From Owenia fusiformis (taxonomy: Eukaryota), in contig CAIIXF020000001.1 in NCBI GenBank assembly GCA_903813345.2, forward strand, positions 12,896,001 through 12,960,000: DNA of 64,000 nucleotides. The letters run 5' to 3'. Made by a program: the position numbers and the translations under genes. This document shows positions 5,401 through 61,100 of the stretch, one piece after another. Numbering within the stretch: the first letter of the stretch is position 1; each line of letters begins with the position of its first letter. The notes beneath the pieces were generated by a model. The model was not told the origin of the DNA. It did not search any database and was given only the letters and a program-made list of their open reading frames with translations.

Positions 5401-6599
5401 TCTTAATAAATAGTCTTCCTTTTCACTCATATTGCACTGCACAAGTTAGCTGATATATTTACTGTCTAGCACACAGGAAAGCAATATTGCCATCACGTTG
5501 AAAGGCATGTGACAGTAAACAGTAACCTGAGCCATTTCCTCCGACGCATTCCCCGCACTCCCCCGATAAATTAATCAGTAAGAATCCATGTTATTACTCA
5601 TAATGCTGTAATTGTGCACTCTGATATATTAGATATTGGTTTCCTGGACCCAGTGGTTTCCCATAATTGAATCTTCCCATGTAATATTATGTGTTTTTCA
5701 GGATACATGTCTGAGAATTAATGCAATGTAGAAAGTAGACGGTATCTTGTGATTTTATACAAATAGGGGTGTTGACATCATAAATTATACCTAATGCTAT
5801 TAATTGTTCATTAATTCAGTTCTTTTCTGTATATTATATATAATATAGATAATATTTAGGTTTTAAAAATAGGAGTCTATATATTTCATTGTTGGTTAAT
5901 TTTCAGAATAACCGAATTATCCCAGCAATAGTTTAATCCCAAGATTGTACAGAGATACATTCCATTCATGAAAGTAGTTCGTTAAATTATTCCTTCATAA
6001 ATTACTTACAAAGAATACCATCTTTTGATTGGTTCAAACGTTCACATTGATTATTAAGTGTCTCACACGTACGTCTCGGTCCCTATTGTTACAACAAAAC
6101 ATGTATATAATCTTCTACCAATAGAATGTAATGACATATCTAATATCAGTTATTGTTGGAATTAATGCCTATTTATTTCAAGATCAAGCCGTCACAGACT
6201 ATTAATATGGTATAGCACAAAGGGACATTTGCGTCATTGGTTTGATTATTTCAGATAGCGCATGGCAGAAAGTGTTTTATTATTCTCTTGGGCTGTATCC
6301 TGATACATTTGCTGTGTGGGTAGCAGTGATCTCCAACATACTTGTTCGCTGGTTTCGAGGTCAAGTGTTTTTTGAATTGATTTCAAATTTTCAGTCGCTA
6401 TATTTTGGGCATGCTGGTTTAATTTAAAGGTGGCATTTTTGGATTTTTATGTCACCACCACCACCACAAGTGGTGACATATTGTTATAGTTTCCAACTTT
6501 TCTGTTGGCAGTGTTCAGCAGTTCGCATTTGGCATTCAGAGTTTGGCATATGTAGCAAATGGCAGGTGGTGACGCATTCAGTGTAAAATATGTACCTTG

Positions 6600-14600: not shown

Positions 14601-17600
14601 TTCCGTGTCATGGTCCAGACAGTGAAGAGGAATCTTTATTATGATAACAAATCAAATGAGTATATTAGAAAAATGAAAAAGTTGGGTTTCAGGCATCATC
14701 ATAAAACCATATCTCAGCCATGTGCTGTCTTGAGTCCAGATTTGATTTGTGTTTTGAAGTTGTTCATTGCTGAATTATATTGGGAGTCATATTTGTTTTT
14801 AATGAAAAGATGTGTCCAGGTTGATATAAAGTTACAGTTCCTGGCTTTGGAGTTTATTAAATTTACTGTTCATAATTGCCATTTACAATCAATCATTTGT
14901 TTTTGCTGTATAATGACCGGAATTAAACTAGAAAGTCTCGTTTCCATTTCAATGAACAATCAGAGGGATAGATATAATGTTTTTTTGCTTTCATCATTTC
15001 ATGACCTGCCTAATTTCTAAAAAGTTTGACTGTTCTGGCTTTATTTCAGGATAACTCTTTGATTTGTAAAACACAGTATTGGTGTACCTCCAATTTTCAA
15101 TTCTAATGAATTTGTACATTTCTGCATCTTAAATTCTGAACAACTTCTACATTTCATCAGATATTTCAATTCTTTTTTACAGATAATAAAATGAGTATTG
15201 TCAAGGAAACAATGGCATATTTTTGTAGATTGCTTTCAACATTTTCACTCATTATCCCTTCTAATTGCTTTAATTGTGCCATCTCATTAGCTTATTTAAC
15301 ATAACTACTAAACAGTACTGAATCAGTAGGTGGAATTACACCTACGATGTAAAAGCGCTTTTTAAAATCCTATCGGGTTTCGACCCGCCTTTAGAGTCAG
15401 GTGTAATCACGATCGCGGATTTAGAAAAGCGCTTTTGTAATCCTCCCAGACCCCTAGTCATTAAAAACCGCTTTCACACCCAAAGGCGGTTTAACGTGTA
15501 GGTGTAATACCGATTGGTTTTCAAGGCGCTTTAACTCGATTTTACACTGAACGAAAACTATATTTGCGCATGAGCATCAAGCATGTTATTGATTTCCGGT
15601 GTGGAGGAAACTTCAAAAAACAAAATTCAAATATTGTGCAAAACTCAATCAAATCACCAAAATGTCGAAAATCATCATGATTCCACGTTCTACCAAGAAC
15701 AACGCAATTTGTAAATAGAATAACCGTAAATTAAATAAATGATATAATACTATTGACGACGGATATTGATGATTCAGCATCCCGAACAGAAGAAAGTAGC
15801 TAATATTTTGAGCACCATAGTATTATGATAATAGCTCTTCTCGATCACTTTGACGCTCACTGGGCCAAAAATCTAAAGTCTTATATTTATACGCCCATGG
15901 GCGTATAAAAAATGATAAAATAACGGACGAAATTACCCCTTCTTTCAGTTATACGCCCAGGGCTTATATACGAGAAATTCCGGTACTATTGTAGATTGGG
16001 GAAGGCGAGGGGAGGGGATGATTGAATAGTTGAAATTACCTCTCTACAATGAAGTCAAAAAAGTGACGAGATCTTTGTCTTGTCCACATCGTTCGTTCCT
16101 GTCCCATATTACCAAGGATGCCAAACAGCCCCAACAAAAGTACCATCTTCATTTTACTGGATCTCTCTTGGATCTCTCATAACAACCGAGCTTCTCTCTT
16201 TGCGCGCTTGTGCATTGTTTTCCATGCTTTCTTTAGCACATATTTGTTAAAGCCAGAGGTAGATTGAATACGATTTAAGAAAAAAAGGAACATACAGTAT
16301 CGGATCATTTTGAATCTCCAGAGATGGCGCTACGGTTGAAAGTGTATATCTAAATAGCAGATTTTGATGCAAATGCGATGGTTGATGGCAAATTATTGTC
16401 TTAAATCAGTCTAAAAGCGCTTTAGAAAAATCAAGTGTAATCACGAAAAGTTGTCTTCAAGGCGCTTTTAAAATTTTGGTGTAATCAGGATTGCGGTTTT
16501 CTAGCCTACGTTACCCAAAACGCCTTGAAAACGCCTTTAGCCATGAAATAGGTGTAATTCCACTAAGTGTGTACATGAATTACAAATATAATACAAATTT
16601 TCTTAGGTAAAACCTATCTAACCCAAAAACACTTGGACCGACCAAAAGTGCTTGGATACGAAAGAAGTCACATTTCAAGGTTTTTAAATTTGACGTCCAT
16701 GCCAGATTGAATAAAAAATGTTCATGTTAAGAGGTGTTTGAAGTATAGAGGTGTTCAGATATAAAAGTATTACTGTATTATATGGATTTAATGTGAACTT
16801 CATTTTTACCTTCAGACTACAAGTAGTTCGTTCACCCATCAATCGTGAGAAGGTCTGCAAACCTCAAGCACTTCCGGATGGTAGATCAGTTTACCCTTGT
16901 GTCTTTTGTGGGAAGGAGTTTAGCACATTCTCTGATATAAATAGACATATGGACTTCCATGAAGGTAACTTGTTATCCACATTGAGGAACTTAATTATAT
17001 ATCAAATAGGTGTTGTTGTTTTTTTTGTTAATTAAGGTGTTTTTAAAATGACTTTCATAGGGCAACAACCCTACTAGGTAATTGTTAGTTCATTAATTCC
17101 ATAAATCTTGTTTATCATAACTTTTGCACAGAATAGCAGTATTGTTCCCTTGTCAACTTTAAGATGCTATTCTTTGCAAAGTTCATCAGCTTATTTCGAC
17201 GTTATCAGTGTCGCCAACAATTTTGATTTACTTTACATATCGTGTAGATTGAAATGTGATCTTTTGAATATTTAAGATTTAATTATGGTAATATTTTTAT
17301 TTATTTCAAAAAACAAATATTAGCAAACCCCTACTGTCGTTATCAAAGACAGAGGGGGATTGAAATTGGTATGATTGTACTTGAAAATGTAGTAAAAAGC
17401 TAGTTTCATCTCTAAACATGTCTGGTGACAAAAAGCTCAATTTATGACATGGTCAGTGGGACTTTAAAACGTGAAATATTGGGGGTGGGGGCTTGCTAAT
17501 ATTTGTTTTTTGAAAGAAATAAAAATATTACCATAATTAAATGTTAAAAATTCAAAAGATCACATTTCAATCTACGCTATATGTAAAAAATCAAAATTGT

Positions 17601-24380: not shown

Positions 24381-24720
24381 TTTTCACTATGAAATAACTA
24401 TGATTAGAACTACATGTATAATCATCATAATGGTGACATCTCTTGGAACTTAATATAGACCAATGCATTGCATTTTTTTTATTATACTTCATTGGGTTAA
24501 TTCTGTTACCATGACTTACAGTAAGTATAGGTTATAGTATACAGTAGCATGTTTAGTATACTTCTATATGAAGTTATTTACATGTAGAATACTTAGGCAG
24601 CAGCCTATGTATAGTTTACATATGGTATGTATCTAGTTAAAGCGTATTATTCAATAAATTATAGAGTATATAAATCACATATTTTTGTGTAAAATATTTC
24701 TACAATTTTCTACTTCCCAG

Positions 24721-24752
24721 CATGGGCTTTCAATTCTAGTTGAAAGCCCATG
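24721..24752. mobile_element. 32-bp palindromic transposon remnant (P-element-like footprint), copy 1
   Basis: CATGGGCTTTCAA-TTCTAG-TTGAAAGCCCATG, flanked by the exact 7-bp direct repeat TTCCCAG (24714-24720, 24753-24759). Confidence 0.75.
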
Positions 24753-25133
24753 TTCCCAGTACTTTAGTAATAACAGTAAACGTGTTTTTGGAATATTTCT
24801 CTAATCTGAACATTTCTCAGTGTCTTTCACCTGGAATTGTGATCAGATCACATTTGGCTGGTTTTATTATTATATAACATCTGGCCTCCTTGCATATTTC
24901 ACATATAGTAGTGTCAGTTTGTTACAATATTTAAACTTTTATGATTTTTGGAAATAGTTGAGACAGGTGATTCTGATGCTCATAGCATCTTTCTGTTTCA
25001 CCTGAAACATGAAACATCTCTGGGCTGAGAAGAAATGAGATGTCATGGTTTATCATGATGGATACAGGTAGCTGCAAGAAACTAAGTTATTTTGAATAGC
25101 CTTTGAATGAAATTGCATTGCATGCTAATCTAT

Positions 25134-45830: not shown

Positions 45831-48800
45831 TAGCCAGGTCAAATCAATAAGTGTATTGAAATAGTTAATACTGAATGGGTAGTTTAGCACTGGTAGGCAT
45901 AATAGAGTTCAATATTTAGTATGGTTGTGGAAACTCTATGATAAATAGCCTCTCTTGCTGTTTGCCTTTCTTAGAATATTTATGTTATTATTTTAAGTAC
46001 ATACTTACACTGACTAAACAGTTAATCATTAATACTGTACAATGTACTTTAATGTACTTTCCATTGGTTTAAACAATACTTGATTGAAAAAATAATGTAC
46101 TTAACATTAAACCACTTTATAAAATCAGATTAGAAATCATTATTGAATTAATTTTGATCTTTGTTTAAAAAGTTGTGTCATGCTACATAAATATATTGCC
46201 AAATATCATCAAATGTCAAGTAAAGATAATACAAGTTGGAATCCATGGTATAATTTCACAATCAACATACTGTAAGAATCATCTCAAGTTGCTGCTCATT
46301 TGAAATATTGCTGCTCATTTGAAAAGTTGATGCTCATTTGAAAAGTGAGATTTTAAATAATATGTAGTGTTCCACATTTGAACAGTTATCCTAAGTACCC
46401 TTTTCAATAAAAAAATTATTATTTAATTGGAAATATTTGATTGCTTTGCGATAGGATTGCTTCAACTATATCCCTGTCTATTCATAGCCGTCATTTTAAT
46501 AATCCCGAAGATAAATCCCAGGATTAAATCTAATAAATTATTCTGCTTATACTATATGCTGATATTTACTGCTGCATTGTTAAGTGTATAAATCAATCAA
46601 CATATCTACAAATAAAACATTTTTGACCTTTAATATGCCAATAAATATTTCAATATTTACAATTAAGATGAAAATATATTTCTATTTGTTTTTCAACTAA
46701 TCAGGCTTAGTTTAACACAAACTTGCTAGAAAGAAAAAATAAACTCGACATTGGTAATCCATTGAAAAACACATAAGAATATACTGTATTTGTCTTTAAT
46801 TTGGCACTACTTAATTTCGTGATTTTTTATTTTTGGGTCTATTGGTGTCTATTTAATTTTGTGGTTTTCAAGTTTCCCCGAATTCCTCCTGTCCTAGAAA
46901 ATTCAAAATACTCATTGTCAGTGTTGTTGATGAACAAGTTCTACAATATTTCTTGTTGTTTATATACATATCTTTAATATTTCTTTTTGTTTCTATCAAT
47001 TTAAACTGCCCGTCCATCTTGGTTCATTCTTAATACTGGGAATGCAAAAAAAGAAAAATACATGTCAAATTCCCAGGGATTTTGGCGACTATTCAATTTG
47101 GCAATTTTTTTAATTCGCCAATTTAAAACGCTCACCCAATTAAAGACATATACGATACACTTTGGCACCATTTTATGACTTATTATAGAGAGAGATGCGG
47201 TTGGGAGACATGCATGGATAGGAATAAAGATTGTTTATCGTTTTTCAAGGTGGTCAGCATTTCAGAAAAAATCATTTGCACCAGTTACAATAGCTACCTC
47301 CTACCTAAACAACTTAATAATACAATACAAATCTCCTTATTGAGAGTACATTGTTTATCATTCAATGAAAATGTAAAGTTTTTTCATGAAGTCTTTGATG
47401 TCCAAGAAATAAAAATAAAAACATGTCTGGATTCAATAACAATATCCATATTTAATTAACTAATTTTATTTTAATTACATATATTTGTTTTACTTTCAAC
47501 ACATCAGATACATCCTGTTCTTCATTAATTAGTCTTTTAATCTGATGTCAGTCAATGTTAGATAAACATTTGGAAAGTGATTAATCAGTATTTATACGAT
47601 ATAATTTGAGCAAATTTTTATAGAACTTGTGCTAATTACGAAAAGTGTTCATATAAGAAAGGCTAATTTTTCAAACATGACTATTCAAGTTGAGAGGTGT
47701 TCACATTTCAGGGATATTTAAACTTAGGGGTCTATGGAATGAAAAAACCTGAACCGTAAAAGTGGTCCATTTAGGAGGTGTTCAGATTAGCCAAGTGTTC
47801 GGACACACAGGTTCCAAAGTACCTAGAACTGGACTACAGAACTGTTTTGTCATAGTTGCCTAGAAAGTATCTCCACATTTAATCCTGAGATTCATCTTCA
47901 TATTAATCTTTTTATGATTAATGGCTGAGAAAATGATTAATTACAACTTCACATTTTTGTTTACTGATTGTCAACTCAACCTGACATGTCAGTCCATTAC
48001 TGTGTAGCCCTAATGGAGTTAATGGGCATTTAACTTTGTGAATCATTAATTAAAACCCTACTTTTCAATACACATTAATCATGATACAATTTTTGATACA
48101 ATTTATCATAACACAGAATTAATTGTGATTGTATTGGGAAACCCTTGAAAATGTTAATTGATTTCATATTTCATATTTTATGCTGTATCAGACAGTGTTA
48201 TCTTAGAATCATATTTTTGTGTTCAATTATTTCAGAATTTGGAAATATTCTGAAAAGGGAGACATTTCTTTCATGCAAGATACAGAAACATTAAAACAAA
48301 GATTCTAATTTGAAAATACTTTATTGGTGGCTCATATAAAAATAATTACATTTAAACTTGACTCTTGTTAACCTTGGATTGTTATCCAAAATTATTATTT
48401 CATTTTATTTAGAGCTCTTATAATATAGCTCAGAATGAAATAACATTCACGGTGAATTTTTATTTTACATTTCATTTTTTGACTGGTCAACAGGTACTGA
48501 ACAACAGTCAGTATTCATAATATTATATAGGAAATTATTGACATCCTGAGTCATTTCATAATAATTTACAAATTTGAAATTTCACCAGATGAAACTCTCT
48601 GTTCATGCATGATGTTTATCAAGTATGCAGCAGTTACATTTCAATTCAATATTATCGAATGCCCTTCAATTTTCACACATAATCATTCCCATTATGGGCT
48701 TTCGAAGAAGCACCCGCCCTTGGAAAAATCATGAGGATGCCCTTTCCCATGTTGGGCATAAATATGAATGGCTTAAAGTCCTGTTTTTAATGCACAATCG

Positions 48801-48914: not shown

Positions 48915-49068
48915 CAGGGTAAGTCAAAAAGATAACCCAAACAAATTTTAATATTTCAGTCATTCAGCATGGGTTTAATTGTGCAAAATATAATTTCATT
49001 AAACCCATGCTGAATGATTGAGTTATCAACATACATGTGTTTGAGTTACCTTTTTTTGGCTCAACCTG
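48915..49068. mobile_element. Palindromic Tc1/mariner-type MITE just downstream of the ORC2 stop
   Basis: TA|CAGGGTAAGTCAAAAAG ... TTTTTGGCTCAACCTG|TA, with an internal stem TCATTCAGCATGGGTTTAAT / ATTAAACCCATGCTGAATGA. Confidence 0.7.
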
Positions 49069-49130: not shown

Positions 49131-52100
49131 CTATGAAGCATCATCCTGTTGGTCAAGGAATTCATTGAGTGTAGCAGCATCAAGTGGAATCATCAATTGC
49201 TCAACACCATCATAGTTCTACAACATAGAAACAAAGTCCTTCTTGGAGATTACCAGTTAAGGGGGTCAGTCGTTGTTGCTATTTTTGGATTGATGTTTAC
49301 CTGTCCATCTACCCTCTACATATATGTAGACACCTACCTAGCTACCTACATATCTACCTAGTACATGTTAATCTATTAACTATGGTATTCATCTTGTGCA
49401 CAAATACCAGTGATATCCCCTGTTTTTTTCTCAACATGGTGTTAAATCTAATTTGACTTGTTCTGGTCAAGCCATGTCAATAATCCTTTTGACAAGTTGC
49501 AAACAGATTTCCAACAAGTTGGCATTTACAATAGAATTTAAAAAAGTAAAGGATTTCAAACAGAATACTTCACCTAGTTCTTCCAATGCTGCACTAACTA
49601 CATTTTAATTGATTTTAAATCACATACCTTTTTAGATCTGATAAGTTTGTGGTCCTTGAACTCTACAAGTTGAGTGTTAAGAGTCTGGTCACTGTTCACT
49701 AAGAAAGCTTCTCTGCACTTCTGATAGAGATCTTGAAATGACATGCCTGCAATCACAAGAATTGAAAACAATTGGAAGCTAATTTACAGACAGACAGACA
49801 GTATATGGTTACAGAATGATGATGTTCAACAGATAACACCAGGCAAGAATTCTATGACCCTCACAACACAGAACAGACTGTTTTTTTAAGTTTTTATTTC
49901 ATTCATTTGAAAGTTAGTTTAATTTAGTTAAATATTTATTAGAGTCTCACGCTGTAAATATATCAAATACAATAAATACATAAAAATACATAAAAGATAT
50001 TACATGTTTTGCACTAAAATTGAATAAAAACACACAGCCCAGCCGGCACCGGCTTATGAGAGACTTTTTACATTTCATAACACTGAATAGTTTTAAATTA
50101 TAAGTCTATTTGACATCGTAATACCAATTGTCTTTGCTAGTATGCGTTGCAATGAAGGGGTGCACATTATATTACAGTATTTCCCTAATGATGGAAGGTT
50201 TTCAAAGTCAGGAATTATCTCTAGTTCTTTGAAAAAGGTTAAAACCTAATGTTTCATGTAAGGGACAGTCAATTAGAAAGTGTTGCTCGTCTTCAATAGA
50301 CTCATTTGAACATGAACAAGTCCTGTCCGCAAGGGGAGTGGCACTGTATCTCCCTGTTTCTATTTTTAATGGAAGTGTCCCTGATTGCATCCGGGCTATG
50401 TTACTTCTTTGTTGTTTGCTTAGTGTCAAAGTAACATAACTCTCTGGCTCTAAAGCATGGTGCTTATGGATCCTGTAAGTCCGCAATTTGTTGCCATTCA
50501 CTGGGTTGCGCCAATCGTTCCAGAGTTCCTTGAACCAGAGATCATTGTCGATTTCCACAAGCCGTTGTTTGACAAGCTCGAGTTTACGTTTGACCCCATA
50601 CCCCATTGAAACATACCAATACCAATATTGATACAGAACAGACTCAACAGTCTATACACACACCCACTTATGCAGACATCCACCCACTTATGAAGACATG
50701 CACCCACTTATGCAGACACGCACCTGCTTATGAAGACATTCACCCACTTATGTAGACATGCACCCACTTATGAAGACATGTACCCACTTATGAAGACATG
50801 CACCCACTTATGAAGACATGCACCCACTTATGCAGACACGCATCTGCTTATGTAGACATGCACCCACTTATGAAGACATGCACCCACTTATGAAGACATG
50901 CACCCACTTATGAAGACATGCACCCACTTATGCAGACATGCACCCACTTATGAAGACATGCACCCACTTATGCAGACAAGCACCCACTTATGAAGACATG
51001 CACCCACTTATGCAGACACGCACCCACTTATGAAGACATGCACCCACTTATGAAGACATTCACCCACTTATGTAGACATGCACCCACTTATGAAGACATG
51101 CACCCACTTATGAAGACATGCACCCACTTATGCAGACATGCACCCACTTATGAAGACATGCACCCACTTATGCAGACAAGCACCCACTTATGAAGACATG
51201 CACCCACTTATGCAGACACGCACCCACTTATGAAGACATGCACCCACTTATGCAGACACGCACCTGCTTCTGTAGATATGCACCCACTTATGTAGACATG
51301 CACCCACTTATGCAGACACGCACCCAATTATGCAGAAATGCACCCATGTATGTAGACACGCACCCACTTATGAAGACACGCACACATGTATGTAAACACA
51401 CACCCACTTATGCAGACACGTACCCACTTATGTAGACACACATCCACTTATACAGACACGCACCCACTTATGCAGACATGCACCCATGTATGTAGACACA
51501 TACCCACTTATGCAGACAAGCGCGCACTTATGAAGACATGCACCCACATACTCACACACTTGTGATTCTATAAAATAACTCAACTAACCTGAATACTGAG
51601 GATTGTCTTTATTGTCAAGTTGATATCTGACCAGCAAGAGAAAGATTCCCTTAGCATTCGGGGTAAGACTCCTCATAACATGGGTGAGAGAGCTCAGAGC
51701 CAGGACACCCGATTGTTGCACTAATAAAGAGTTCTCATATGAAGTCTCCTCTATGTATGGCTCAAATGTTGTGACATCATACCACAACCAATTGAAGCCA
51801 CTAGATTTTCTTTGGTCCCAGACTGGAAAAATGAGAATAAAATGAGTACAATATATTTATTTATTCTTCATTTTGTTTATTCATATTTAACTAAAAAAAA
51901 CAGCAACTCTAAGGAGTAGCAAATCCCACCGAAGAAAATAATAATAATAAGTGACCATCTTGAAAATTTCTTCTTGAGCAGTGCTCCTTTGTCCAGAGGT
52001 AGCAGCATATAAATTTGAACCAAATCTGTAAACTGGTATTTGAGTTATCAAAGATCACATTTTTAACAACAAATGGCAGCCATTTTGATAAATAGTGGCC

Positions 52101-55100
52101 ATCTTGAAAATATCTTCTTCAGCTCCTTTATCTCTTAGCATCAGCACAAAATATTAGGGTTATCAAAAGATTATGTTTTTTTCCTTAGGCATCAATATAT
52201 AAAATTTGAACCAACTCCGTCAATTGGCATTTGAGTTATCAAAGATTACATTCTTTTACGAAAAATTTGGTGGGATAAATATTTATCATAATAAAGGCGC
52301 AACCAATGATAGAGTGCAAATAAACCCCTTCTTTATATTACATCTTTTTCATTTCCTACAATTCAATAATGGTGTATCATCATGACTTAGAATCAGCATT
52401 TAACATACAGTGAAACCTGTAAGTGGAACATCTCTAAAAGTGGAACACCTCCACTCACAGGTTTAACTGTATATGTATAAGCATACCAGTTGTTGATGGT
52501 AGACTGCATCAAACAGTTGTAGGAACACCTAATTCATCACTTTTAGTCAGAGAGTTGGGTAATTATTAAGATTTATCACCCATAATGATTTAATACAGAT
52601 TAAAACTACTGATCGAGAACAATGGTTGTCAGAAGAAATAAATTTATTGCACATATTGAATTTGAATATGCTAATCTATAGTACAGAATGTCAAAGTGAC
52701 ATACTTAGCAGTTTTCGGTCTGTCGCAATATATTGATGACAGACCTCAGGCATATATTCAATGATAGGGACATAATTGTTGTATTACATACCTTTATTTC
52801 CATGGCTACATTATATCAATGACGTCACACGTCTGTGTGCGAGTGAAATTTGGAAGAAATGAAACATGATGTTTGGCGGCTATACAAGAATATACAAGAC
52901 ATTAACATGACAAAATGTCACCACCTAAAACAATTTGGTCAATTTAAAGCAAGTTGGAAAATACCTTTTGACCTTAAGAAGGTTTGATTTGAACGTCAAT
53001 TTGAAGCAAGTTGAAAAAATACCTCTTTGACTTTTTCTGACATTGAGAAGGTCATTGAAGGTCAAATGTCAACAGATTTGAACTTCTGAGAACATGTAGA
53101 TGATTTTGAAAAAAAATTAAGTAAATTTGAAGCAAGTTGAAAAAAGACCTTTTTGACCTTGAAAAGGTCATTGAAGGTCAAATGTCAAATCTAAAGTCAG
53201 ATTTGAACTTCTGAGAACATGTAGATGATTTTGAAAAAAAAAAGTCAATTTGAAGCAAGTTGAAAAAAGACCTTTTTGACCTTGAGAAGGTCATTGAAGG
53301 TCAAAGGTCAAATCTAAAGTCAGATTTGAACTTCTGAGAACTTGTAAAAGTCAAATTTGAACTTCTGAAAAGATGTAGATGATTTTGAAAAAAAAATTTG
53401 GTCAATTTGAAGCAAGTTGAAAACAGACCTTTTTGACCTTTTTTGACCTTGAGAAGGTCATTGAAGGTCAAATCTAAAGTCAGATTTGAATTTCTGAGAA
53501 CATGTAGATGATTTTGAAAAAAAATTTTAGTCAATTTGAAGCAAAGTTGAAAAAAGACCTTTTTGACCTTTTTTGACTTTGAGAAGGTCATTGAAGGTCA
53601 AATGTCAAATCTTAAGTCAAATCTAAAGTCAGATTTGAATTTCTGAGAACACGTAGATGATTTTGAAAAAAAAATTTAGTCAATTTGAAGCAAGTTGAAA
53701 ACAGACCTTTTTGACCTTTTTTGACCTTGAGAAGGTCATTGAAGGTCAAATGTCAAATCTAAAGTCAGATTTGAAGGTCAAATGTCAAATCTAAAGTCAG
53801 ATTTGAATTTCTGAGAATATGTAGATGATTTTGAAAAAAAATTTAGTCAATGTGAAGCAAGTTGAAAAAAGACCTTTTTGACCTTGAGAAGGTCATTGAA
53901 GGTCAAATGTCAAATCTAAAGTCAGATTTGAACTTCTGAGAACATGTAGATGATTTAGAAAAAAATTGAAGTCAGTCTAAACAGTATTTGTTAAGTTATA
54001 GGAAGTTGTAAGAAATTGTTACAGACGCCAACCGCCGAGCCGTCGCAAAAAAACGGAGACCATAACAATATGTCACCACTTTTGGTGGTGACATAATAGC
54101 CGACCTTCAGCTCCATTGAATTCATTACAAATGCTTCGATAGGTATGTAATACAGTACATTATTATATGATTGCTAGAAATCATGTGATTTGATTGGCTG
54201 ATTCAGTACAATGTGATCAAAAATATCATAGCATATTTCACAGCTCCCTCCATTATTGGATTATAAAAGATGTATTGCCCGGCAGCATGTATTTACCTTG
54301 CCCTACAGGCTGCGACTAATACATACTGCAAAAATCATCAGAAGAACAGGTATTGCCCACCATAGAATGAAATATTTGATCAATATTTTAGTTGGTGGCA
54401 CTAACTAAGAATGGATGCATGACACACTGTAAACTTGATATGGTACTCACTTAATGGTGCATTTATATGGTCTATTGATGCAATGATATGGTACTCACTT
54501 AATGGTGCATTTATATGATCTATTGATGCAATGATATGGAAACCCTGAATCTGGGCCAGTAGACTGAGAACTGCCTGCACTTTTTCAGCACGCAACATAG
54601 CACCATCAATATTGTGTACTATTAAATAGAGGTCTTCGTGATCTGAAAGTAAAGCATATATTTCTACAATAAATACAGTAATTGAGAGAATGCAAACTGA
54701 CAACTACAAATCATCGATAAACAATGCATAATAATCTGTAGAACAGGGTGATCCGAAAAAAGCAGAACCCTATTATAACCCTTTATTCAAAGCTTTGTGG
54801 GTTCAGTTTTTTTGGACCATCCTGTACTAAGATGAAATTCGAACAAAATTGATTTTTAACAACATCATTTCAAAATTGTCTCTTTTGTCACCCAGTTTTA
54901 TGTACTATGGACTTGTGGTTTATTATTATGGAATATGTGTGAGATTTACCTCCAGTTTCAAAGTGGTCTTTTATAAATTCATACTGATCCATTGGGCTTC
55001 GAAAGTTTCCTCTGTGATCCAAAATATCTTCAGTAATGCTGTTTAAAATCTGTAACAATGAACATATAAGGATTCATGAGCAGACCTTCATTCTTGTGGT

Positions 55101-58100
55101 TTTGCCCATGTTGAAAAAATAACACATCTCCTTGAAAAGTGGGTGTCATAAAAGTGAATGTGGATCTATTAAAAGGTAATATACGTTATTAATTTATACA
55201 TGTACAGTATATGTACTTTTAATACAACAGACTCTAAATCGCATCCATTTGTGGGTTCTTACTGATAAAAAGTATGATTTCTAATGAGATCCAGCAATGT
55301 TAATTTTCATGGGCTCGATGATATTGTGCAATTCTAAGGAATATTAAGGAATTCTTAATGTGTATTCTGGACTTACATGTTTCAAAGTGAGACTAGGAAA
55401 GTACCCATTGACAACCAGATGAGAGAATCCCTTGAGAAGGGTAGTCCTGAGTTCCTCTATTAGAGATCGCTTTGAGCCTACTCCATATAGCAGGAGATTG
55501 TATCCATTGCTGGAAGAATTAAACATTCAACATTTGAAACTGAACAATCATGACGCAGCAGCTCGTCGTATACTAGAACATCTAGGCACTAGAACATTAA
55601 GAGTAAATACATAGCAGTAAATGAAATTTAGGATAAGGCCAAATATAAATTACATCTTGGAACTTTCATCTTGGAACTTTGAGTGAATGCACTACTGTTA
55701 TCACTGATCTTTCGGAAGAATCAACAAAATCATAAATGTTAGTGTCATAAGTTAATCAGCTTCATGACAGGGGCAGTTTGAGATGAAATATTACACTCCA
55801 AATAATTCTTAAATCACTGTTTTGGTAGGAAATCAACTTCCAGGAAATAAAACTACGAAAGAAAATTTTGAATATCTTTCATTTACTAACATGATTTTGA
55901 CCAAATAAAGTTAGATTCAGCCAGAGGTTAGATCTTAATCTATTTTCAATACATTTACTCAAAGTTGTGCTTTGAAGTCTACATTGATTCAAGTGCATCC
56001 AGGGGACGGATTGAGTCCACTTCAACTGGAAACTCAGGTTCCTCCCCATTATGGCACAGTGTTATTGACAACCCATTAAATATTTCCAATAGATCAGGTA
56101 TTAAATGTCTTACCACATCTGAAGCATCCATTTGTTGAACAAACTGGTGTGTTCACGATGTAATTCCTCTCTCTGAGATTTATGTGATGCTGTGACACCA
56201 CTCAGTGCATCCTGCAAGGCTGCCTGGTCCATTCTGGGTGTGTCAAGCTTAGACAGAGTGCGGTCTGACGTAACAGCTGCAACATTTTGGGCGATGAAGT
56301 AATCTTCAACCATGGTTGTCTAAAATCATCAGAAATGACTTAGAATTATCCAAAAGAAAAAAATAAGGCTAAAACCTGAGTGTACAAAATAATGAGTTAA
56401 TCTACCTACATGCTCAGTCAAAAATTATGAACTTAGTGTGTTATATTAAATAACAAGGCCTTAACATGCAAAATATCACCACCTGCCATTATTTACAGAC
56501 ACTGACCACCAAACACTGTTACAGACGCCAAATGCTGTTACAGGCAAAGAATGCCAAACACCAACCACTGAACAGGATCCACAAGAGTTGGAGACTATAA
56601 CAATATGTCACCACCTCTGGTGTTGAGATAAAAATGAATTGATACATTTTCACTATAAAAAATAAGATATCTCACCAGATCTTCTCCCTTTGACTTTCTA
56701 CTGATGCGTTTTGCAAGTTCTTGTTTCACAGATATAGATACAGAACTGGTGCTGCTTGCAACACTCTCAGAGTCACTGTCACTGGCAATGCTTTCATCTG
56801 ATGAATCAGCATCTAATAATGTACAAAGGAAATACAGTCATTATCTACTAATGTACAAAGGAAGTACAATCATTATGTAATGATTGTACAAAGAAAGCAG
56901 AACCACTATCTCATATAATATACAAATGAAATACAGTCATCATCTACTAATGTACAAAGGAAGTACAATCATTATGTAATGATTGTACAAAGAAAGCAGA
57001 ACCACTATCTCATATAATATACAAAGGAAATACAGTCATCATCTACTAATGTACAAAGGAAGTACAATCATTATGTAATGACGATGGAATAATTATTCAC
57101 GGACATTAAAACACACCACTCAAGAATAAAAGTTGAATTAATTCAATTAATTTATGTTACTGATGCTTTGGTTATACAAGGCATTGGCAAACGAAATGTC
57201 ACTACCTGCAATTTGTTACAGACGCCGTAAATTGTTACAGAGGCTATGTTACGGATGCCAAACACCATCCACAAAAAAAGTTAGAGACAATAACAATATA
57301 TCATCACTTCTGGTGATGACATATTAAATCAATTATTGAACAGTAAATGAAGGATTCCTAAATTTCATTAAAATGGTCTTAATGAAGATAGTTTTGGTTA
57401 CTTTTAAATCAATCAATAATCAATAACACACCTAATTTTACACAAAATATTTCAGGTCATACTGACTCATATATATAACATGATACAGGGATCAATGCAC
57501 ACATTCCAACTTGGTATTATAGCATATTCATCCCGCACATTGTTACCTATATAACCTATTTATAAAAAATATGGATGGCCAATATATTATGGTGTCTTCA
57601 GTTTGGCAGAGGAGGGCAGGTTTTATTGGAAACATTGATTTTATTCACTTCGCTTTAAGCGCACATGGAAGACCTGTTCAGTAACACTGTCAATAATACT
57701 TGGTAATATTTCACATTGAGATCCATTCACATTAAAAATTCAAGAATTTCCAATATCAAATGGGAGGGGGGATTATCTGGGATTCTAAAGGTTTACTGAA
57801 TAAATAACAAATCTTCATTTGGGTTTCAGCCTCACTTTAAAATACAGAGGGAATGCCATGGGGGAAACAATACTTACTTGTTTCATTGCGCTTACGGAGT
57901 CTGTAGGGTGTTGTAGCCTCAATGGGCCTGTTCTGTCTGTCTTTGCCAGTTTTCTTCTTTGGCATGGGAGTTCCCTGACCTTTTGCTGAAATAATACAGT
58001 GATAACGTATGGCATATCTCTGACATTGCATTCATATATTACAAGCGAGAAAACATTTTATTCCAAAAATTTTTTTAATTAAAAAATCACTGGATTTGAG

Positions 58101-61100
58101 TTTCACTTACGGTGCCCTGGAAAATTTGAATTTTAATGCATTTTAAAATATGACAAAGAAGAGATTACAGGATATAGCTGGCTATCCCTAGACAAATTCA
58201 TTTGCATGTGATCTGAGAATTTTCAATAACATGTACTTTTGATAAGTCAAGTATACTCATTCTCAGACTACATGAAAGATCCTTCATCCTGAGACTGCCA
58301 AGAATGCAACATTTTGTCGTGAAAAAAGGTACTGTTTTGACCAATTTGGCTCATATTGAATGAGATCCAGGCAGATAGATTTATAAATCAAATTTAATAC
58401 ATCAACCATAAATCGTAGTCATTTTAATGTTGCAATTAAAACCACCTGTCTCTTTAATCAGAACTTCATGTTCAAAATTCAATTCACAGCAACAAAGGCA
58501 TACCTGAGGCAAATTCAGAAGAGTGTTATTAAAAGTTATGCTCATTTATCAAACCAGAAGCAGATTGTTAAACCAGAACCACAACATTGTGTGTCAATAT
58601 TCTGTGTTTCTGATTTCAGTCGTAGTTAAATGCTCTAGATATTTTAATTACCAATAAACAAGTTAATCTAGTTATGGTTTGACCCCCTCTCCTCATCTAA
58701 CGGAATTTTAAAATATTGATGTCACATGTTGTCATGGCACTATACTTTACCTTTTCCTTTACTAGGAGTATTTCGAGATGCAGGGGTGGTTGCCTTGGTA
58801 GCAGCTAGGGCTGAAGAACAAAATACAAAAAATATAAACATCCATGATAACAATTGAATGGAGGCAAAAGATTAAGATTTAACAAAAAAGATTTTGTTTT
58901 TGTACTTCAAATTCAGTAGCATGTATATTTTTCATATTTTTGAAAATTCATCAAAAAGTCATTATAATCTGCATATGTATTCTCAATCAATAAATTTCAA
59001 AATTTCAGTGTAGATTAACATATACCAGTTGGCTCACCTCATATGTAACAATAGATCAAAACCTGACCTTTAGTTAACCTTTCATAAATAATGATTGATG
59101 TCAAAATACAAGTTAAAAATCATGCATTGTAATGATTTAAATGGTCAAAAATTAGAGGAGTTATGGTGTTATACGTACTTTGAAATGATAGGGTTAGTAC
59201 AAACGAACAAACATTAAAATGAAAGATTTCAATAAAGATCAGATAAAGGTTACCCCTTCATTTGCATATCATCAGGATTAAATAAATTAAAAACAAATAG
59301 ATTATAATCTAATACACTAGGCCTATCACGATACAATATTCAGAATGATCCATGAAAAAGGAATCCTACGAACAGTTATGACGACTGCATTTTTCAGATC
59401 AGGAAAATTTAAACTTTTGCTATTGTTTATAGCAGTAACACTTAGTGTCTATTTCTTAGATACAAATGACGAACTAACTGCTAGTGTACAAACATATTCC
59501 ATAAAGGAACAGAATTCAATTGGTGGTGATGAGATAAAAAATGGAAAAAAAACAATTCAAGATGATGAAAATAACATTCCACTGTCTCATTATGAGGATA
59601 ACATTCAGAAAGAAAATTTCATTGAAGACAGGAATAATATCCTATTTGTTCATGATGAACTAAAAAGTGATGATGATAATGACGAAGCTATGAAAAGTGT
59701 TCATCAAATAAAGAATGATGACATTGATGATGAAAATGACTACGATGAAGATGAGAACAATGAAGATGACAATGATGAGAAATCCTTTTATAGGTCACAA
59801 CATGAAAATGATATAAAACAAACATTTAAGTTCAAAGGAATTTTAGAAAAAAGACTTCCCAAGTTTATCATAATAGGAGTACACAAATGTGGAACGATGG
59901 CTTTAGCAACTTTTCTCTCCATCCATCCATATATGGTACGATCCAGAGCTCATGAGGTTCATTATTTTGATAATTTCACACGACAAGCAATGGGTTTAAA
60001 TTACTATCTTAACCAAATGCCTTACACCTACCCCAGTCAGATACCATTTGAAAAAACTCCAGCATATTTTGATTTCGGAAATATCAAAGCAATATATGAA
60101 ATGAATAAAAACATTAAACTTGGAGTTATCGCATGCAACCCAATAAAACGGGTTATGTCACACCATCTCAATAAGTTGAAAGCTAAAGAACGATTAAATA
60201 AACAATTTAATGGAACATATGAAAGTTGCGTCATGAATGGGGACAAACTGAACACAGATTGTATTTACATAACCAGGGGATTGTATATTGAGCACTTAAC
60301 AAGATATATGGAATATTTTCCCAGAGAAAATTTCTTTATCATAAAGAGTGAAGATTTGAGATATACTCCAGTTGCTGTCCTGCAAAAGTTTGAAAAATTC
60401 ATGAACATTCCAAAATTTTTCAACAATGATACTCTCTATTACAACAATACTATGAACCAGTTCTGTATCAATAAGCCTTACTGGAAAAATCCATATATGG
60501 AACTGAATAGAGGATGCTTTCCTGAACACAAAAATAGAGTTCACCCACAAGTCAGAGAGGGAATACCTGAACTGCTACTGGAATATTATAAGCCATATAA
60601 TGAAAAATTTGCTGAAATTGCTGGACTTGGTAAATTAGATTGGGGTCTTTAAAAGTAGAAGCAACCTCGAGGTGTTGTCATCAGCCCCTAGTTACAGCAT
60701 CAGGGTAAAGTGAAAAAACTTAACTTCAATAAAGCTCAGTTCTATGAACAGAATTTGAACATCAAGTACATTTTAGCATTTAGAATGTGTTCAGAGACTT
60801 TTATTCCATTAATGTGATATTCATAGGATATCAAGTCAAAATAAAAACAGTTTTTTAGTAAAACAAAATTATATTTTTGGCAAATCTTTACTTAACCATA
60901 AATTAAGGGTTTTAAACCATGAGATGCAGTGCAATATGCAATGGTTCACCGATTTTTGCTACTTGATGAAACCATGGGCTTTCAACTAGAATTGAAAGCC
61001 CATGATGAAATGCGGCTGGTAGTGAAAATGTAAAAAAGTTTGATTTGAATCATTTTTATTATGGAACAAAAGGAACATCCTATGTTATCTACTCATGGAT

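Follow-up and report, generated by a model that had tools for sequence, protein, structure and literature searches.

Genomic context

The window, which here means the whole 64-kb stretch of Owenia fusiformis DNA that was analysed, has a GC content of 30-38% and contains a C2H2 zinc-finger gene, a kinesin gene with an FHA domain, a fragment of ORC2 and a sulfotransferase reading frame whose best outside relative is an annelid protein with 39% identity (Table 1). Two copies of a 32-bp hairpin lie among these genes; the first (site 1) is located between the zinc-finger and kinesin genes, and the second (site 2) is located 321 nt past the stop codon of the sulfotransferase frame. Eight reading frames of the window were scanned against Pfam, which returned host domains only and no transposase domain, and no Rfam family reached its gathering score anywhere in the window. 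On the minus strand, an open frame of 147 aa at 50208-50651 had no Pfam match, and we take its C-terminal motif to resemble the tail of non-LTR retrotransposon reverse transcriptases.

Table 1. Positions of the genes, hairpin units, flanking duplications and centre variants in the window
Feature	Position	Strand	Remarks
C2H2 zinc-finger gene	~8.5-20.5 kb	+	
Left 7-bp target-site duplication TTCCCAG, site 1	24714..24720		Single copy kept in the empty-site contig of run X1
32-bp hairpin unit, site 1	24721..24752	+	13-bp inverted ends CATGGGCTTTCAA / TTGAAAGCCCATG, centre TTCTAG
Centre variant T>C	24734		10-14% of DNA depth; 46/417 RNA reads
Centre variant, 2 nt left out	24735		9-10% of DNA depth; 40/417 RNA reads
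Centre variant C>A	24736		29-32% of DNA depth; 175/417 RNA reads
Centre variant T>G	24737		28-30% of DNA depth; 169/417 RNA reads
Right 7-bp duplication TTCCCAG, site 1	24753..24759		
Kinesin gene with FHA domain	~33-41 kb	-	
ORC2 fragment	~54.4-54.7 kb		
Sulfotransferase reading frame	59345-60649		Stop codon 60650-60652; Pfam Sulfotransfer_1 match
Left 7-bp duplication ATGAAAC, site 2	60966..60972		
32-bp unit, opposite orientation, site 2	60973..61004	-	
Right duplication ATGAAAT, site 2	61005..61011		6/7 identical to the left copy

Two identical hairpins between short duplications

The unit CATGGGCTTTCAATTCTAGTTGAAAGCCCATG is a 32-mer that is present exactly, on opposite strands, at the two sites, and no third match with up to three mismatches was found in the 64-kb window. 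None of 100 shuffles yielded any match to the 32-mer. The 7-mers on the two sides are identical at all seven letters at site 1 and at six of seven at site 2, and the sequence beyond them is unrelated between the sites. The first-pass annotation had described identical hairpins at two sites, in opposite orientation and with otherwise unrelated flanks, lying between TTCCCAG repeats at one site and between ATGAAAC and ATGAAAT at the other, and both the exact matches and the flanks were verified. By our own arithmetic, at a GC content of about 0.33, the chance of a 7/7 match between flanks is about 1e-4 and that of a match of at least 6/7 is about 2.5e-3. At site 2 the two 7-mers differ by a single C/T substitution, which fits CpG decay because the T of the right copy is followed by G. 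Folded as single-stranded DNA, the unit reached -14.9 kcal/mol with a z score of -7.7.

The whole window was scanned for units of 20-60 bp that have terminal inverted repeats and are enclosed by an exact repeat of 6-9 bp. Seven rows were returned; site 1 is one of them, and the other six fall within a stretch of low complexity or a tandem repeat. Five Markov controls returned 0, 0, 0, 1 and 1 rows. The 64 kb contain nine perfect hairpins whose stem is 10 or longer and whose loop is 12 or shorter, and site 1 alone among them has an exact flanking repeat. No other short hairpin with flanking duplications was found in the 64 kb, a window too small for this result to weigh against the existence of several scar-leaving families.

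Insertion polymorphism and copy number

The contigs of three DNA runs from one study (X1, X2 and X15) and the raw reads of an RNA run (X21) were compared with positions 24587-24886. A contig bridging site 1 without the unit was present in all three DNA runs. In the X1 contig, which had a depth of 61.5, exactly 39 bases (24714-24752) were missing and seven letters fitted either side, so that the inserted unit is 32 bp long and the duplication 7 bp. The net difference was also -39 in the other two runs; the X2 contig skipped 41 bases with AG in between, giving the target TAGCCAG, and the X15 contig skipped 42 with AGG in between, giving TAGGCAG. Since the site is filled in the window and empty in the contigs of other runs, the insertion at site 1 is polymorphic, and this empty state in three of three runs supports the recent activity that had been proposed from the window. 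The contigs were built from 31-letter words and cannot cross exact copies of a repeated 32-mer, and the filled allele of site 1 is for this reason invisible in X1, X2 and X15. Among the same contigs of 31-letter words, in which matches of 13-17 nt do not show, no long-element allele was found at site 1 in the three runs. The X2 and X15 contigs carry two and three adjacent substitutions inside the target heptamer, respectively, and X1 carries the reference heptamer; these substitutions could be ordinary polymorphism or the trace of an older event there.

The hairpin itself was found far beyond the two sites of the window. The numbers of matching contigs in X1, X2 and X15 were 421, 447 and 370, respectively. 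The summed word depth on the flanks was 61.5, 56.1 and 40.5, and over 24727-24746 it was 138,500-142,900 in X1, 99,700-102,700 in X2 and 109,100-112,100 in X15. The hairpin is thus about 1,800-2,800 times deeper than its flanks, a ratio of summed depths that is not a copy number. These data support a family on the order of 10^3 copies in this genome, in agreement with the many genome-wide copies predicted in the first-pass annotation. In the RNA run, 417 reads on both strands carry the unit, and they stem from other loci because each of them matches the site 1 stretch only in part. In X1 and X15, depth was also raised about two- to three-fold over about 40 bp at 24787-24826, which suggests another short repeated segment near site 1.

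Chance similarity, an assembly or library artefact, and a functional hairpin of the host that was never inserted, such as a site bound by a protein, are all very improbable as origins of the unit. Nothing beyond the hairpin shape speaks for such an origin. Against it stand the shuffles, the real duplications, the precise empty allele, the recovery of the unit from three other DNA runs (as contigs) and from a further RNA run (as raw reads), and the Rfam result for the window.

The two 13-mers separated by a gap of 0-30 nt were found in no public viral contig and in no prokaryote genome. The same pair occurred at two loci of public metagenomes, L001 (2214-2257) and L002 (3192-3235), on contigs of 82 and 89 kb that represent one AT-rich locus on opposite strands. 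The metagenome hairpin was judged to be unrelated; it shares the 13-mer start, but it has an 18-bp stem and an 8-nt loop and lacks a flanking duplication. The 13-mer did not occur in the literature searched.

Centre variants across the family

Variants with a share of at least 10% were listed among copies with at least 88% likeness. None of the 26 stem positions had a variant at that share, and all the listed variation fell at 24734-24737, the centre of the hairpin. The C>A and T>G changes have near-equal depths and were for this reason assigned to the same copies; C>A without T>G is present in at least one read. From these shares we infer about four centres, TTCTAG in about half of the family, TTAGAG at about 30% of depth, TTAG and CTCTAG, and the unit length across the forms is 30-32 bp. 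The forms share constant 15-nt arms, CATGGGCTTTCAATT and its near-mirror AGTTGAAAGCCCATG, which differ at position 14 (T versus C). Between the arms there is nothing in the TTAG form, CT in the TTCTAG form and AG in the TTAGAG form, and the CT and AG inserts are complements of each other. The three main centres appear to be related by 2-nt steps, all of which could be derived by trimming one pair of ends.

Target preference and transposase type

The left-side flank consensus sequences of other copies were GTTAAAC, GTTTAAC, TTTAAAC and GTAAAAC, and those of the right side were GTTAAAT, ATTTAAC, GTTTAAC and GTAAAAC. Five of these eight heptamers have the form GT...AC and three are one letter off, with an agreement of only 0.41-0.48 over 30 letters. 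The sequence around the target 7-mer is T-rich before it and reads CAA or TAA after it. The target is roughly a palindromic 7-mer near GTWWAAC, which is a preference and not a rule; of the targets in the window itself, ATGAAAC fits it partly and TTCCCAG poorly. Each unit is bounded by a 7-bp duplication, and a duplication of this length combined with a preferred palindromic target is characteristic of a DDE cut-and-paste transposase; the duplication marks a transposase that cuts with a stagger of 7 bp.

Other superfamilies have a different target or a duplication of another length. The hAT elements make duplications of 8 bp, Transib elements of 5 bp and Mutator elements of 9-10 bp. The piggyBac elements insert at TTAA and the Tc1/mariner elements at TA. 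The Dada elements make duplications of 6-7 bp and insert into small-RNA genes. The facts on the P superfamily and on MITEs used here and below were taken from parts of PMC7776569, PMC4168063, PMC10983969, PMC2895639, PMC3698922, PMC3964958 and bioRxiv 10.1101/2022.05.24.493293. As given in those parts, the duplication of the P element is 8 bp and that of the 1360 and Galileo branches is 7 bp. The Galileo target reads GTANTAC, GTATTAC or GTAGTAC inside a 15-bp palindromic and AT-rich motif, and the P/1360 target motif reads ANAGT...ACTNT. The unit described here ends in CATG-3' at both ends with a terminal G, and in the P strand-transfer complex, according to the same sources, the 3'-terminal G of the element contacts GTP. 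Judged by these marks, the transposase likely belongs to the P superfamily and to its 7-bp kind, like those of 1360 and Galileo. The P-superfamily character assigned in the first-pass annotation is upheld by the 7-bp duplication, the GT...AC palindromic target, the CATG ends and the length of no more than 17 nt per side.

Origin of the hairpins

The best explanation, which we hold tentatively and with a probability of about 0.45, is that the hairpins are immobile donor-site scars of a longer P-like element, each end of which would have left 15-17 nt behind. The P transposase, in the published descriptions available to us in part, cuts the transferred strand at the tip of the element and the other strand 17 nt inside, which gives 17-nt 3' tails to the element and to the donor flanks alike; end-joining then unites the donor tails, which are not complementary to each other. 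If a P-type transposase acted here, the cut would fall at the element tip on one strand and about 17 nt farther in on the other, and each donor flank would thus retain the end of the element as a 17-nt 3' tail. Once 0-2 nt had been lost from either tail, end-joining would give a duplication, 15-17 nt, another 15-17 nt and the second duplication. For a parent whose ends are both CATGGGCTTTCAAYTCT (or end in YTAG), joins of 17+15, 15+17 and 15+15 nt would produce TTCTAG, TTAGAG and TTAG, respectively. The features of a footprint are present at both sites of the window, where both duplication copies persist and each end contributes 17 nt or less to the stretch between them. Donor-site scars are favoured because both duplication copies surround the unit while the empty allele has a single copy, because each side is at most 17 nt long, matching the P donor tail, and because no stem position varies at 10% or more and the listed variation lies at the joint. 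The first-pass arithmetic, in which two 17-nt ends are joined through a CT overlap, accounts for the commonest centre TTCTAG and, by trimming, for TTAG, but it does not account for TTAGAG.

The parent element was sought in the window through its ends. No further match to either 17-mer with up to three mismatches and no longer element with the same ends was found in the 64 kb. Four extra matches to the 13-mer with two mismatches were present in the window, a number near the chance level of 2.3 +/- 1.5, and they contained no inverted pair; a near-match at 48693 had no partner. The lack of a parent in the window and of a long-element allele at site 1 in three runs weakens the case for donor-site scars. 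It is further weakened because a few discrete and abundant forms in thousands of copies resemble the subfamilies of an amplifying family; in flies, according to the partial sources, the junctions left by end-joining after P excision are more varied and fall into five types, as against about four centre forms in thousands of copies here.

Subfamilies from a few master copies are what the centre forms would be if the 30-32-bp unit were itself mobile, that is, an extreme MITE moved or copied by a transposase whose recognition is limited to the 13-bp ends. The family shows the hallmarks given for MITEs in the literature consulted in part, namely many homogeneous copies that have inverted ends and a duplication and do not code for protein; the centre forms are few, discrete and abundant, and the C>A-only read may represent a step between TTCTAG and TTAGAG. 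No relative longer than the unit exists within the window. The filled/empty polymorphism of site 1 fits a mobile unit and a scar alike; it would follow from a single event of a mobile unit, and the need for an insertion and then an excision counts against the scar. On the other hand, on grounds of DNA mechanics, a 32-bp duplex should be far too short and stiff to pair its ends in one transposase complex, and the P-superfamily elements known so far depend on longer ends or on binding sites in subterminal positions. As described in the partial sources, P has internal binding sites, the sub-terminal repeats of Pdre2 lie 400 bp inward, 31 nt of each end take part in the P complex, and the P-derived MITE BuT5 is about 1 kb long. 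The variation also lies in the exact middle of the unit and proceeds in 2-nt steps, and point mutation alone predicts otherwise. In the P complex as described there, the model of the transferred strand runs from -1 to -31, this strand folds back to pair with the non-transferred one, and transposition depends on the pairing. Under P-type chemistry the 32-bp unit would be immobile, because cuts 17 nt in would leave two unconnected 15-mers and no such duplex. We consider a mobile unit of this kind rather unlikely, and it is the main rival to donor-site scars.

The two 15-mers themselves could be the mobile form, in which case the 30-32-bp hairpin would be a self-propagating element and the smallest eukaryotic transposable unit known. 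If P-type cuts were made 17 nt inside each end, two single strands of 15 nt would come free, they would integrate 7 bp apart, and filling in and joining by the cell would create a new hairpin, while the donor tails would rejoin and restore the old one. Each jump would be a net copy, and thousands of near-identical units would follow from this. We regard such self-propagation as unlikely.

The hairpins could also be remnants of a long foldback-like parent that was lost without transposase, by replication slippage or by hairpin removal between short end-proximal repeats, in a manner resembling the nearly precise excision of Tn10 in bacteria. Loss of this kind would give the same product each time and would explain thousands of identical centres without reproducible end-joining. 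The palindromic CTAG in the centre can serve as a direct repeat between inverted arms, and Galileo-type elements, as described in the partial sources, pair 7-bp duplications with very long inverted repeats. However, the match in size to twice 15-17 nt would then be a coincidence, TTAGAG and TTAG would require other slippage points, and the foldback parent was not found in the window. We know of no report of such transposase-independent foldback loss in animals, and we rate this origin as improbable. The probability that remains is reserved for mechanisms other than those listed here.

Comparison with known systems

Donor-site scars of a P-like element have their closest model in the excision footprints of the Drosophila P element, which in the sources available in part also keep both duplication copies and up to 17 nt of each inverted end, with the joint in the middle. 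The P footprints differ in their 8-bp duplication, compared with 7 bp here, and in the host animal, and the likeness is known here from the 30-32-bp units themselves, not from a parent or an observed 17-nt cut. Galileo and 1360, as described in part of their literature, share with the family a 7-bp duplication and an AT-rich palindromic target that starts with GT and ends with AC, but they are hundreds to thousands of bp long and have long or internal binding sites, whereas the units here are 30-32 bp; the comparison covered the duplication and the target. The zebrafish P-like element Pdre2/THAP9 is described in the partial sources as having perfect 13-bp ends that start with CAT and end with CAAC. 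The ends CATGGGCTTTCAA found here are also 13 bp long from CAT and are followed by C on one arm, but Pdre2 differs in its 8-bp duplication, in the middle of the 13-mer and in its sub-terminal repeats, which lie 400 bp inside.

The family resembles MITEs, as the consulted parts of the literature define them, in its inverted ends, duplication, lack of coding capacity, homogeneity and high copy number. BuT5, a MITE of the P element of the repleta group, differs in its length, given above, and in its duplications of 8-9 bp. A unit of 32 bp is at or below the lower size range described for MITEs in the same partial sources and has no room for the subterminal sites of P, Pdre2 or Galileo. A literature search, at the level of titles, yielded no description of P-type scars in large numbers or of MITEs as short as 32 bp. 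A search for the smallest or shortest MITE yielded no usable figure; the only passage of relevance deals with family size rather than length.

In bacteria, the nearly precise excision of Tn10 leaves a 50-bp palindrome; it is independent of transposase and requires long inverted repeats, and the duplication there is 9 bp. The Tn10 remnant is similar to the units described here in that the two element ends form a short palindrome, which lies between the duplication copies and is identical at every site. The family differs from each of these known systems in its scale (thousands of copies), its size (30-32 bp) and its host, which is neither an insect nor a vertebrate.

Significance

If the hairpins are scars, they constitute a natural genome-wide record of thousands of P-like excision and repair events outside insects, and they would provide in vivo evidence for the 17-nt staggered cut as a trait of the superfamily. 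They would also serve as a free data set of germline end-joining outcomes in a non-model animal, and past transposition events, not just the surviving copies, could be counted. If the 32-bp unit moves alone, it falls below the size accepted as the minimum for cut-and-paste elements, and a new mechanism is required. Either way, the unit gives rise to insertion polymorphism close to genes, as illustrated by the position of site 2 behind the sulfotransferase frame and by the 417 RNA reads, and it is too short to be annotated by standard repeat finders.

Other repeats and motifs in the window

Several further hairpins and inverted repeats were noticed in the window. Perfect hairpins at 6448-6480 and 54069-54095 have a common 11-bp stem, TATGTCACCAC / GTGGTGACATA, with loops of 11 and 5 nt, and the adjoining ataacaa is common to both when one of them is read on the other strand; they are probably another dispersed repeat family. 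A perfect palindrome of 24 bp, TTTATACGCCCATGGGCGTATAAA, lies at 15886-15909 without a flanking repeat. An inverted-repeat structure of 88 bp at 48945-49032, with 35-nt arms that are 86% complementary, an 18-nt loop and CATGGGTTTAAT in its arms, may be a small MITE of another family. At site 2, the last four letters of the unit and the right duplication together read CATGATGAAAT (61001-61011), which we assume to resemble the start of the terminal repeat of the fly P element. The string was absent from the P-element review text searched, and the likeness was taken as a coincidence because seven of its eleven letters are target DNA. The same 26-bp hairpin, with a 12-bp stem and a 2-nt loop, occurs with identical flanks at 56864-56889 and 56963-56988, 99 bp apart, and this pair belongs to a tandem duplication.
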